Source of the DNA: Candidatus Iainarchaeum sp.
GTDB lineage: Archaea > Iainarchaeota > Iainarchaeia > Iainarchaeales > CSSED10-239
Assembly (NCBI GenBank): GCA_028700905.1
Contig: JAQVRT010000019.1
Coordinates: forward strand, 1 to 12,877
DNA: 12,877 bases
Direction of reading: 5' to 3'
A program made the translations under genes and the position numbers. The notes under the pieces are model-generated. The model was not told the DNA's origin, made no database searches, and saw only the letters and a program-made list of their open reading frames with translations. Below are positions 5,913 through 11,505 of this stretch, in pieces. Numbering within the stretch: the first letter of the stretch is position 1; the number at the start of each line of letters is the position of its first letter.

Positions 5913-6923
5913 TTATTTAATATTTAAAATATTTAAAAGCCTATAACAATTTGCATGCTTTGCATAACCTAAAAAAGAAAAAAGAGAAGACCTGAAGTTA
6001 AGTAAAGGCATTTTCTTTTGTTTTAGTAAATAATTATTTTTATTTTGTCTTTTTACAAATCTTTTAATGTTTGATTTTCTTAATCGTACAAAAGAGGAAA
6101 ATACCTTATACCCTAAAAAGTCAACACCTTTAGAAGTTAGGTTTGTATAACTTTTATTTTTAGGAACTGCTAAAAACAAATCTTTTTTTAGAAATAATTT
6201 TATTTTTCTTCTAAAAACCTTTAAATCTCTTTTAGAATCAGAAAATATTAAAAAATCATCAACATACCTATAATAATGTTTAATTTTTAAAGTATGCTTA
6301 ACAAATTGATCTAATTGATTTAGATAAATATTTGCAAACAATTGAGAAGTTAAATTTCCAATTGGGATTCCTTTTTTATTGTTTAAAGAAGAAAAAGAAT
6401 AACTATCTATTATTTGATAGATTATAGATAATAGTTTTTTATCTTTAATTTTTTTATAAATTATACTTTTTAAAACATCTTTATCTATTGAAGGAAAATA
6501 TTTCTTAACATCTTGTTTTAAATAATATTTTGGAGGGTTTTTTGATTGAACTAATTTTTTAATTTCTAAAAAACCTTTAAAAGTGCCTTTTCCTTTTCTA
6601 CATGCAAAAGAGTTGTTTATAAAAGATTTATCAAAGATAGGTTCAATGATGTTTATAATTGCATGTTGAACAACAACATCTCTAAAACAAGGGGCACTAA
6701 TTATTCTTTCTTTAGGTTCATATACCTTAAAGTTTCTGTATTCTGAAAAAGTATATTCTTGGTTTATTAACTCTTCTTGTATTAAAAAAAGTTCTTTTTC
6801 AAGATTGGTTGTAAACTTTAGAATATATTTTTTATTAGGGTTTGATTTTCTTGCTTTTTTATAGGCATTAAAAATATTTTTAAAAGAAGTGAATTCTTGC
6901 CAAAGGTTATTGTATGATTTCAT
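5913..6923 (-). CDS. Reverse transcriptase, diversity-generating retroelement (DGR) clade
   Basis: 336 aa with RT motifs in order. They are YRNFKVYEPKERIISAPCFRDVVVQHAI (motifs 1/2), ACRKGKGTFKG, KQDVKKYFPSIDKDVL (motif 3), GIPIGNLTSQLFANIYLNQLD (motif 4), YRYVDDFLIF (motif 5, YVDD catalytic box), VDFLGYKV (motif 7), then LRKSNIKRFVKRQ and a C-terminal SFLGYAKHANCYRL. The [ILV]GxxxSQ form of motif 4 is the DGR hallmark. The block-by-block resemblance to Bordetella phage BPP-1 Brt, as I recall it, also favours DGR over retron or group II intron RTs. There is no maturase/X or endonuclease domain. Confidence 0.85.
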   Translation of the reverse strand: MKSYNNLWQEFTSFKNIFNAYKKARKSNPNKKYILKFTTNLEKELFLIQEELINQEYTFSEYRNFKVYEPKERIISAPCFRDVVVQHAIINIIEPIFDKSFINNSFACRKGKGTFKGFLEIKKLVQSKNPPKYYLKQDVKKYFPSIDKDVLKSIIYKKIKDKKLLSIIYQIIDSYSFSSLNNKKGIPIGNLTSQLFANIYLNQLDQFVKHTLKIKHYYRYVDDFLIFSDSKRDLKVFRRKIKLFLKKDLFLAVPKNKSYTNLTSKGVDFLGYKVFSSFVRLRKSNIKRFVKRQNKNNYLLKQKKMPLLNFRSSLFSFLGYAKHANCYRLLNILNIK

Positions 6924-7157
6924 TTTTAAAAAGCCTTATTTAAAGTTAAGAGTTATTACAGATTTCTTTTTACATACTATAAAAATACTAAATGTAATAA
7001 CTTATCTTTATATTTGATTTTTTAACATAAAAACAAAATAGTTTTTATGGCACACATTATGTGCAATCAAGAAACATTTTACAGATGTAGTTTTTTAAAA
7101 TATTCGCTTTATATGTTTTTTTAAAACAAAAAAATAAACATACAAACTCTGATAAAA

Positions 7158-7180
7158 CCTCATTATTAAAAATAATAAGG
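7158..7180 (-). other. Stem-loop 5 nt downstream of the target-gene stop codon (candidate DGR VR-flanking hairpin and/or transcript terminator)
   Basis: Arms 7158-7167 and 7171-7180, loop 7168-7170. In minus-strand sense it reads CCTTATTATT-TTT-AATAATGAGG: 10 bp with one U-G wobble. It is followed in that sense by TTTT (complement of 7154-7157). Confidence 0.45.
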
Positions 7181-7185
7181 AGAAA

Positions 7186-8595
7186 CTACTTGACACAGCG
7201 CAGGCCGATGCGGCGGTCCCGGGAACCAGGAGTGTCGAGCAAGGTCAGGCTCAAGACCCCAGCATCAGTGCCATGGCCCCAGTGACCACCGCGCAGAAAC
7301 GCGTATTCAGCAGTAGAAGTGTCTCCAACATCACTATAAGTATAAATTCTACCAACACCATTATCTGTTGCATTATAAGTATTACTTGTAAGTAAAAATA
7401 AATCTTTATACTTTAAAGTGGTATTACCTAAATTATCAGAAGAAATATATTGGTTTTCTCCACCACCTTTGGAATAATCAAAATAATTAAAACCAGTAAT
7501 AAAGTTACTATCATCGGCATTATTAAAACCATCAGGTTGATCTTTTCTTTGTATTGTGTCACTTGTCCATTGTCTTACATTACCGGCTAAATCCCAAATA
7601 ACTTCACCATTAGTTAAAGTTAAGGTTCTTCTTTGACTCCCTGAGCTTTGGCCAGTTCCTGCATAACCATTTGTATCAATTGAAGCTTCTAAAGCTCCTC
7701 CTGGTGTTCCATCGTTATGTCCTGAATAAATATATCCCTGACCAACAGTTCCAGAAGACCAGTTAGATGGAACTTGTTCTATGTTTCGTACAATAGTCAT
7801 CCATTCATTGTTTGTTATTAAATGACCACCTATAGCTTCACAAGCAGCAATAGCTTCGGTTTGGGAAATTCTTGTAACAGGAGAGCCTTCAGGAGTTGAT
7901 ACTAATGTACCAGGAGTAGGGCATAATTCATAACTATAAGTATTATAGGTTAAAGAACCGGTATTACAATCAGGATAATCTGCTACAAGATTTCCTTTAC
8001 CATCTCCATTAACATCCATTTTCATCTCATATTTTGAAACACAAAAACCACCATTTTCATTCATAGTTCCATATAAATGATTACCAGGAACAGGAATGTA
8101 ACCTTCTGGACAAGAAGAAGGTTGTTTTATGGTTTGTAAAATATTATTCTTAGTGATCATTCTGTCATTATCAAGATAAAAAACAATATTTAAATTGTCT
8201 TCTAAAATACCATGGTCAATTACGGCAGATTGGTTTGCAGTTATTGTGATTGGAGGGTCTATAGGGTTAATATTAGTATTACCAAACAAACTATAACCAG
8301 TTATGGTTAGAGAAGTGTGAGGAGAACCATAAGGAGGTTTATATTCTAAAATGGTACGACCATTTATTGAGGTTTTTAAATGTAAATAAAAAGAAGTTTC
8401 TGATTCAGTGAAAATCTCAAGACCAGAGGCTTTGGAAAGAGAATCATTGGTAAAACCTTTTCCCCAAGAAATAATTATACCAATTATAGCAACAGCAACA
8501 ACAACTAAAAGAATAGTGGCTATAAGAGGACTTATAGCTTTTCTTTTTTTAAAAAAAGTTATAAAATAATTACCTTTAATCATAATAATCTGCAT
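7186..8595 (-). CDS. DGR target (variable) protein: archaeal type IV pilin-like N-terminus plus C-terminal FGE-sulfatase (SUMF1) / C-type-lectin-fold domain
   Basis: 469 aa. The N-terminus, KKRKAISPLIATILLVVVAVAIIGIIIS, matches the archaeal class III signal and Pilin_N pattern ([KR]-A-[IV]-S-P-[VIL]-I-x-x-[IVL]-L). From about residue 160 it shows FGE-sulfatase blocks: CPEGYIPVPG, GFCVSKYEM, ISQTEAIAACEAIGGHLITNNEWMTIVRN, GNVRQWTSD and a terminal LRGGHWG...RIGLRCVK. It lies directly upstream of the DGR-type RT on the same strand. The start is ambiguous between M1 (8595) and M5 (8583). Confidence 0.8.
   Translation of the reverse strand: MQIIMIKGNYFITFFKKRKAISPLIATILLVVVAVAIIGIIISWGKGFTNDSLSKASGLEIFTESETSFYLHLKTSINGRTILEYKPPYGSPHTSLTITGYSLFGNTNINPIDPPITITANQSAVIDHGILEDNLNIVFYLDNDRMITKNNILQTIKQPSSCPEGYIPVPGNHLYGTMNENGGFCVSKYEMKMDVNGDGKGNLVADYPDCNTGSLTYNTYSYELCPTPGTLVSTPEGSPVTRISQTEAIAACEAIGGHLITNNEWMTIVRNIEQVPSNWSSGTVGQGYIYSGHNDGTPGGALEASIDTNGYAGTGQSSGSQRRTLTLTNGEVIWDLAGNVRQWTSDTIQRKDQPDGFNNADDSNFITGFNYFDYSKGGGENQYISSDNLGNTTLKYKDLFLLTSNTYNATDNGVGRIYTYSDVGDTSTAEYAFLRGGHWGHGTDAGVLSLTLLDTPGSRDRRIGLRCVK
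7189..7326 (-). other. Putative DGR variable region (VR) including a GC-rich IMH-like 3' end: the last 46 codons of the target gene
   Basis: Hand count gives 81 of 130 nt G+C (62%) for 7191-7320, against 13/60 in 7131-7190 and 19/60 in 7321-7380. Coding-strand adenine is only 16/130. There are no AAY codons, and the codons around the invariant Trp are all NNY (CAC TGG GGC CAT GGC ACT GAT GCT). The island maps exactly onto the ligand-facing C-terminal segment (RGGxW...G[FL]RC) that is the VR in CLec-fold DGR targets. Confidence 0.7.
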
Positions 8596-11480: not shown

Positions 11481-11505
11481 CTCCTTTTTTTAAAAAATAG
11501 AAAAA

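Follow-up and report, generated by a model that had tools for sequence, protein, structure and literature searches.

The 12,877-nt contig JAQVRT010000019.1 of Candidatus Iainarchaeum sp. (25% G+C), analyzed as a whole and referred to here as the window, probably carries a collapsed diversity-generating retroelement (DGR). A crossover between its variable repeat (VR) and its template repeat (TR) appears to have deleted the template, and the VR has most likely been frozen in the state of the last homing event. The VR is a G+C-rich, adenine-poor island that closes a 469-aa gene on the minus strand (7186-8595), the target gene of the DGR. Comparison with orthologous loci supports its identification as the VR of a DGR in an archaeon of the Iainarchaeota (Diapherotrites, DPANN) close to Ca. 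Forterrea multitransposorum.

The G+C fraction of positions 7191-7320 is 0.623, against 0.22 and 0.32 in the 60-nt flanks (7131-7190 and 7321-7380), and the coding (minus) strand of these 130 nt is made up of 16 A, 41 C, 40 G and 33 T. An earlier reading of the letters alone (the first-pass annotation) had counted 62% G+C, flanks of 22% and 32% and 16 adenines in 130 nt, all of which were reproduced. A sliding G+C profile, which it had proposed as a check, showed the island to be the only such segment of the contig: all other 130-nt segments have a mean of 0.250 (standard deviation 0.058) with a maximum of 0.438, and the island lies 6.4 standard deviations above the contig mean. Adenine accounts for 12% of the island versus 33% of codons 1-423 of the same gene. 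The G+C content at third codon positions (GC3) reaches 72% over the last 39 codons, compared to 14% in codons 1-430 and 13% in the reverse transcriptase (RT) gene; because of this contrast the island is regarded as a feature of the nucleotide level and not of the amino acid level. The open reading frame (ORF) continues through the compositional boundary to the C-terminal end ...YAFLRGGHWGHGTDAGVLSLTLLDTPGSRDRRIGLRCVK, directly followed by the stop codon. The unbroken frame, the uninterrupted series of formylglycine-generating enzyme (FGE) and C-type lectin (CLec) motifs, and the complete lack of AAY codons (AAC or AAT) in the island had all been described before and were found again. The island had also been said to cover exactly the last 46 codons. 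A sharp G+C island is indeed located at the gene end; its homology to template repeats, however, extends over 7302-7186, which is 39 codons (the last 38 and the stop codon), and the 24 nt upstream are merely mildly G+C-enriched.

Two layouts were distinguished among the related loci: canonical loci, which have kept TR and avd, and collapsed loci, in which target, VR, spacer and RT follow each other without TR and without avd. A query with the RT yielded both DGR loci of the complete Ca. Forterrea multitransposorum genome (CP045477), locus A (L003) and locus B (L002), and a locus of another Iainarchaeum metagenome-assembled genome (MAG; L001). Look-ups of target homologues added L012 and L013, both from NPID01, and L014, and a metagenome scan added L017-L022, among which L019 is a second sample of locus A. 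L014 was considered as the locus B of the L001 genome, an assignment that was rejected: its VR and TR are identical to those of Forterrea L002, and it is simply Forterrea.

In BLAST searches window positions 7299-7183 align with both the VR and the TR of L012, L003, L002 and L013. The VR proper, delimited by homology to the TRs of orthologous loci, occupies 7186-7302 on the minus strand, stop codon included, and forms the core of the island. Compared to the TR of L003, 17 of 27 adenine positions have been changed against 3 of 73 non-adenine positions (Fisher p = 1e-9); canonical VRs have 0-1 non-adenine mismatches to their best-fitting TR. All 13 adenines remaining in the repeat core of the window are at TR adenine sites. 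Twelve codons, spanning 7210-7284 on the minus strand, stand opposite AAC or AAT in the orthologous TRs, and all of them are NNY in the window (CAC, GGC, CAT, GAT, AGC, ACC, CTC, GAC, TCC, GAC, CGC and CGC). This supports the proposal of the first-pass annotation that the island is a DGR VR in which AAY codons were rewritten by adenine mutagenesis. The rewritten residues (438, 440, 441, 444, 449, 451, 453, 454, 458, 460, 461 and 462) are the high-entropy columns among the eight closest homologues, and they are interleaved with residues that are invariant in these homologues (W439, AGVL, L450, L452, P456, R459 and GLRCV). An identical segment in related genomes had been named as an observation that would speak against a VR; the homologues in fact differ, and they do so at the rewritten codons. 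The 3' end had furthermore been likened to an initiation of mutagenic homing (IMH) element. This applies to CATCGGCCTGCGCTGTGTCAAGTAGTTT (7210-7183, minus strand), an invariant, G+C-rich and IMH-like segment of 28 nt that is common to the TRs and identical in the VR and TR of L003, but not to CGG GAC CGC CGC, which comprises three of the rewritten variable codons; half of the string likened to an IMH thus consists of variable codons. Repeat position 73, the third base of a TR AAT codon (window 7234), shows a non-adenine change: the T is C in the window, G in the L003 VR and C in L001, and the TR of L020 has C here. Either the TR is polymorphic here, or misincorporation at this non-adenine base, beside two adenines, is recurrent.

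The composition of the island has two causes. Firstly, the TRs of this DGR family are already at ~50% G+C in genomes of 25% G+C. In canonical loci the VR has 55-64% G+C, and the TR, which lies ~270 nt upstream of the RT gene, has 49-51% G+C and 9-10 AAC codons. The TR value of ~50% overall rises to 70% at non-adenine positions, and this composition is held in lineages with RTs that are just 58-80% identical and with genomes that are all at ~25% G+C. Because it is kept across such lineages, the high G+C content of the TR is a maintained property and not the result of a recent transfer. That the TR stays at ~50% G+C (GC3 ~70%), although mutation is strongly biased towards A+T, suggests that the template is constrained at the level of nucleotides. 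Secondly, adenine-specific mutagenesis has replaced 17 template adenines, raising G+C from 51% to ~63-64% at the expense of A. In six canonical VR/TR pairs 94 of 172 adenine sites were changed, 69% of the changes being to G or C; in the window VR this holds for 15 of the 17 changes. Horizontal transfer as the source of the G+C content was considered and rejected, as the island is found in all relatives and the rest of the cassette has the composition of the host. Equally, the sharp compositional boundaries might be taken as a sign of foreign G+C-rich DNA or of a chimeric join without any retroelement. This is hardly credible: frame and conserved CLec motifs run on through the island, and the orthologues in 25% G+C genomes all have the same island, paired there with an AAC-rich TR. 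These orthologous TR/VR pairs already refute it.

A template repeat was found nowhere in the window. Ungapped identity scans of both strands of the 12,877 nt, with the whole repeat and with 40-mers, gave none (59 of 138 matches at best), and a repeat finder run over the contig gave nothing. When mismatches were allowed only at candidate adenines, the best matches were just poly-A tracts. An adenine-biased self-BLAST of the window was negative as well; the same search finds the TR/VR pair in all nine canonical loci with sufficient flank. A TR/VR pair with mismatches at TR adenines, normally seen within one locus, is thus seen here only against orthologous TRs. Neither the ORF list nor the Pfam matches of the window include an avd-like ORF, and no accessory gene (avd or HRDC) is found; bAvd is present in L012, L013, L014, L002 and L003.

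The syntenic loci L012 and L003/L019 share the order helicase, UPF0175, target, 128-aa ORF, bAvd, TR, spacer, RT, FKBP, proteasome and CPSF. The window is colinear with L012, except that 7299-7183 represents VR and TR both, and that the ~1.2 kb between these, comprising the VR-downstream flank, the 128-aa ORF, avd and the TR, is absent. The junction reads VR-TAG-TTTCTCCTTATT, and the sequence directly after the window stop codon, TTTCTCCTTATTATTTTTAATAATGAGGTTTTATCAGAG..., is that found downstream of the TR, and not of the VR, in canonical loci. No canonical locus has a VR-downstream flank that resembles the spacer; a flank of VR type reads TAGTTTTTAGAAAAAAT...GACGGGTGAGACGG... and is followed by avd and the AAC-rich TR. 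The IMH-like 3' segment is present in the window VR, and the VR-type downstream flank of all canonical relatives has been replaced by a TR-type spacer. CATCGGCCTGCGCTGTGTCAAGTAGTTT is the longest exact stretch common to VR and TR, and the switch from VR to TR context must lie within it, because all 12 variable codons are of VR type and everything 3' is of TR-flank type. Also without a counterpart in the window is GGGCTTTTACAGAAAAA, which the canonical loci share upstream of their TRs and which is complementary to TCTGTAAAA of the spacer.

Two further features of the canonical loci are missing from the window. About 45 nt downstream of the canonical VR stop codon there are four tandem GACGG motifs at a spacing of 8-9 nt (GACGGGTGAGACGGCAAGACGG..AGACGG; L002:8585-8625, L003:8556-8590 and L012:7432-7465). 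This patch, G+C-rich within A+T-rich DNA and conserved in all canonical loci, may be the target-recognition element of the Forterrea-type DGR family. The ORF between VR and avd, 128-135 aa in length, occurs in every canonical locus (L002:8799-9206, L003:8821-9207, L012:7679-8065 and L013:7591-7986) and has no Pfam match. Its product may be a second accessory protein.

These features are best explained by a deletion. A crossover inside the 28 nt common to the 3' ends of VR and TR would remove the ~1.2 kb, leaving target-VR, TR spacer and RT in this order; an aberrant cDNA-bridged event could lead to the same product. Provided that the deletion is real in this contig, recombination is its presumable cause. 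With a donor-type flank, and with neither a template nor Avd in cis, the VR would no longer be a recipient. For BPP-1 it is known that homing is efficient only with a sequence that directly adjoins the VR on its downstream side, and that directionality is determined by the IMH region (PMC3240598). The window VR is most likely frozen, since it has no adenine-bearing template, no Avd in cis and a TR-type instead of a VR-type 3' flank.

The collapsed layout, with target-VR, spacer and RT but no TR and no avd, recurs in two further lineages, L001/L015/L016 and L022/L055. In the first of these the genomic context is as in the window, and the RT is closest to that of canonical L003 but has a stop at codon 72. 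Its VR, the same in two tandem copies and in two assemblies, shows 8-10 non-adenine mismatches, most of which are changes from G/C to A/T. The tandem copies are part of a 6351-nt duplication (L001:5803-17362, also in L015 and L016) that was recovered in two independent assemblies; the duplicated unit holds a truncated helicase gene, the target gene, the RT pseudogene and a truncated FKBP gene. The L022/L055 lineage has an RT of 58% identity and another genomic context. The L022 type counts six cluster members, all on different contigs (5 records, at least 3 assemblies), which have the same VR peptide and differ near the N-terminus. In this oldest collapsed lineage, indels at the VR 3' end (L022:3780-3800, L055:2905-2935) have turned IGLRCV(Q/K) into TTASAFVV, and the downstream 362-aa RT ORF remains open. 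The VRs of both additional lineages are thus frozen. The canonical Forterrea locus A, by comparison, shows 18 differences over 9005 nt between two samples (L003 versus L019), and 18 of 18 are inside the VR. Judged from these orthologues, loci with a template diversify and loci without a template are frozen, so that orthologous loci with and without template amount to a natural experiment. The nearest RT relatives of the collapsed loci are canonical (L012 for the window, L003 for L001), and the collapses are therefore regarded as independent events. The direct-repeat design of DGRs would in that case contain an inherent path to self-destruction, followed in at least three independent cases in the Forterrea-type DGR family.

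The junction could also have been produced by the assembler, jumping from the VR to the TR-downstream sequence via the 28-nt stretch and skipping a 1.2-kb loop, in which case the DGR itself would be normal and active. Several points would fit: as direct repeats, VR and TR end in exactly the same 28 nt; a hypervariable VR breaks up assembly graphs; the MAG is in fragments, with the present locus on 12.9 kb and locus B on a contig of 3.4 kb; and the RT is intact. A 28-nt repeat is, however, shorter than the final k of the usual metagenome assemblers. Moreover, the same type of junction is found in several independent assemblies of another lineage: at L022/L055 it is identical in a JGI contig and a MEGAHIT k141 contig, and because of the latter an assembly collapse at the 28-nt repeat is ruled out for that lineage. 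The L001-type genomes combine the junction with a stop codon in the RT and with decay of the VR, neither of which would be expected of an artefact. An assembly artefact is consequently considered improbable.

Several observations weigh against a collapsed DGR with a frozen VR. The RT ORF of the window is intact, with a ratio of nonsynonymous to synonymous substitutions (dN/dS) of 0.14 versus its canonical orthologue and no relaxation; therefore either the deletion is of recent date or the RT has remained useful. With just 3 non-adenine mismatches to the best TR, and with all 13 adenines left in its core at TR adenine sites, the window VR gives no sign of long decay. The accessions of an Avd (MDD4050209.1) and of a second target (MDD4050211.1) are close to that of the window target, MDD4049835.1, so that another DGR locus, of canonical layout (locus B), is probably present in this MAG. 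The locus-A VR of L019 was evidently written from the locus-B TR, which makes rewriting in trans conceivable. Finally, for this contig taken by itself, assembly collapse or polymorphism in the population could account for the sequence.

On this basis it could be proposed that the collapse is real and that the VR is still diversified in trans from the complete locus B (target, 131-aa ORF, Avd, TR and RT), via the common G+C-rich 3' segment; the retained RT and spacer of the window may contribute. The Avd and target genes of locus B are on a 3396-nt contig that very likely belongs to the same MAG as MDD4049835.1, Forterrea and NPID01 each possess loci A and B with near-identical TRs, and the window RT is under purifying selection. 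The VR of L019 shows no non-adenine mismatches to the locus-B TR and 3 to its own TR. This comparison of L019:2393-2517 (VR) with L002:9619-9743 (locus-B TR) and L019:3618-3742 (own TR) uses repeat positions 37, 46 and 59 as markers. At the sequence level it indicates that, within one Forterrea genome, one DGR locus has templated the VR of the other in trans; two DGR loci of one DPANN genome can apparently cross-template. For the window VR the marker positions give a tie between A-type and B-type TRs, with 3 non-adenine mismatches to each, a result that trans-diversification would allow. However, at position 59 the window VR has the C of the lost A-type TR where B-type TRs have T, the VRs of the two other collapsed lineages are invariant, and the native VR downstream flank, needed for efficient homing in BPP-1 (PMC3240598), has been lost. 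Continued diversification in trans is therefore held to be rather unlikely, and a frozen VR in a collapsed DGR is preferred.

It might also be imagined that the window represents a self-templating DGR with a single repeat, in which the RT copies a transcript of VR and spacer and the cDNA homes back, so that adenines are progressively erased. The VR now occupies the exact place of the TR relative to the structured spacer and the RT, and the island is poor in adenine. Nevertheless, the 13 adenines in the core are at the canonical level after one TR pass (11-18), without the depletion expected of a ratchet. The TR-upstream element that pairs with the spacer is absent, Avd is lacking in cis and the collapsed relatives have invariant VRs. 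Such a mode of action is very improbable.

Under the preferred reading of a collapsed DGR, it may be speculated, with considerable reserve, that VR/TR recombination is a recurrent and possibly selected one-step off-switch of DGRs that fixes a single variant of the surface protein. RT and spacer would then be retained in functional form, either to serve locus B or to allow the VR to be overwritten in trans. Such overwriting of a locked VR is suggested because cross-locus templating was seen in Forterrea L019.

The target gene (7186-8595, minus strand) was assigned from its ORF, Pfam and a structure model, and its 469-aa product (MDD4049835.1) is the one member of its protein cluster. Exact look-ups of the target and RT sequences gave no record. 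The protein starts with an N-terminal helix like that of archaeal type IV pilins and archaellins, continues with beta-rich domains and ends in a C-terminal FGE-sulfatase/C-type lectin fold. The Pfam FGE-sulfatase family matches with E = 3e-9, and the N-terminus matches pilin 8fk7. The AlphaFold (AF2) model reached a pLDDT of 86.7, and in Foldseek its best PDB matches were the DGR variable proteins TaqVP (5vf4) and Mtd (1yu1), followed by formylglycine-generating enzymes. The position of the VR is accordingly the usual one for DGRs: it closes the target gene and falls within a C-type lectin fold, this or an Ig-like fold being typical of DGR targets.

The DGR-type RT (5913-6923, minus strand; 336 aa, intact) matches RVT_1 with E = 2e-22 and contains the motifs YVDD and IGNLTSQ (IPIGNLTSQ). 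It thus carries the [LIV]GxxxSQ motif of the DGR clade, and its orthologues belong to complete TR/VR/avd cassettes. It is 77-96% identical at the protein level to the RTs of Forterrea and NPID01; the highest value is for the RT of canonical L012 (96% aa identity), and the dN/dS of 0.14 is the same as that of canonical pairs. The RT gene begins 262 nt downstream of the target stop codon. The intervening spacer (6924-7185, minus strand), directly after the VR stop, is the homologue of the canonical TR-RT spacer, the 3' part of the DGR RNA, and is 97.3% identical to that of L003. RNAalifold analysis of 10 spacers predicted 49 pairs, 11 of them with compensatory changes (e.g. columns 46/81, 50/77 and 132/140). 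On the minus strand of the window these form conserved hairpins at ~7182-7158, 7147-7107, 7065-7049 and 7049-7026 and a long-range helix (7002-6993 with 6960-6951). The conserved structured spacer RNA is intact in the window. An Rfam scan of the window, spacer included, gave no match, nor did a tRNA scan. The window is a mosaic in this region: the spacer is closer to L003 (97% identity) than to L012 (77%), and the RT gene next to it is closer to L012 (96%) than to L003 (80%). From sequence identity, this mosaic (5913-7185) points to strain-to-strain recombination at the RT start or close to it. On either side the DGR is flanked by genes with archaeal housekeeping functions (Ski2-like helicase, FKBP, proteasome beta subunit, CPSF-like nuclease and TruD). 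Between TruD and DUF5654 (window ~11481-11505) the window lacks ~680 nt of L012 (L012:2373-3054) with a 94-aa ORF and a ParE-like toxin gene. In L003, a transposase is found instead upstream of the target, and a gene for a 421-aa ATPase lies downstream of the RT.

DGRs are known in DPANN archaea: nanoarchaeal DGRs have been described (PMC4372165) and Diapherotrites are included in a survey (PMC5758913). The Forterrea genome paper does not mention the DGR loci of that genome. A literature search for VR/TR recombinational deletion or for TR-less DGR remnants gave nothing specific, only laboratory notes on VR/TR homologous recombination, which is not proof that they are undescribed. As far as this literature was searched, the recurrent self-deletion, the contrast between loci with and without template and the cross-locus templating appear to be undescribed. 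DGR surveys need a TR/VR pair, and collapsed loci are therefore invisible to them. Where the genome is very rich in A+T, a lone, sharp G+C-rich and adenine-poor island closing a CLec gene offers a usable footprint of past hypermutation.

The element most likely is of a known kind, a DPANN DGR with a CLec target, that has lost its TR/VR pair and avd through VR/TR deletion. The BPP-1 DGR (mtd VR, avd, TR, spacer and brt) shares with the window a C-type lectin target (Mtd is a top structural match), a VR at the 3' end of the gene, the rewriting of AAY to NNY codons and an invariant G+C-rich stretch at the VR 3' end. It shares with the canonical relatives of the window the order avd, TR, structured spacer and RT. 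In contrast to BPP-1, the window has neither TR nor avd, its VR is followed by a TR-type spacer and not by its own downstream element, and its host is an archaeon of 25% G+C. A further difference is that Forterrea-type VRs and TRs are identical through the stop codon and 3 nt beyond; therefore any distinction between IMH and IMH* must lie in the flanks. Forterrea locus A is orthologous and syntenic to the window, with the same target family, spacer and VR frame, and differs in having the ~1.2 kb with the 128-aa ORF, avd and TR. TaqVP of Thermus aquaticus (5vf4) is the best structural match of the window target (E = 2e-9) and likewise has a CLec fold, whose C-terminal ligand-binding face carries the VR. 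It shares only 17% identity with the window protein, which adds the archaeal pilin-like N-terminus and extra beta domains. In multi-target DGRs, remote or orphan VRs are served by one TR. The window VR resembles these in lacking an adjacent TR of its own, and cross-locus templating was seen in L019. It differs from them in that it adjoins the RT and the TR spacer, has lost its native 3' flank and would derive from deletion of a TR and not from duplication of a target.

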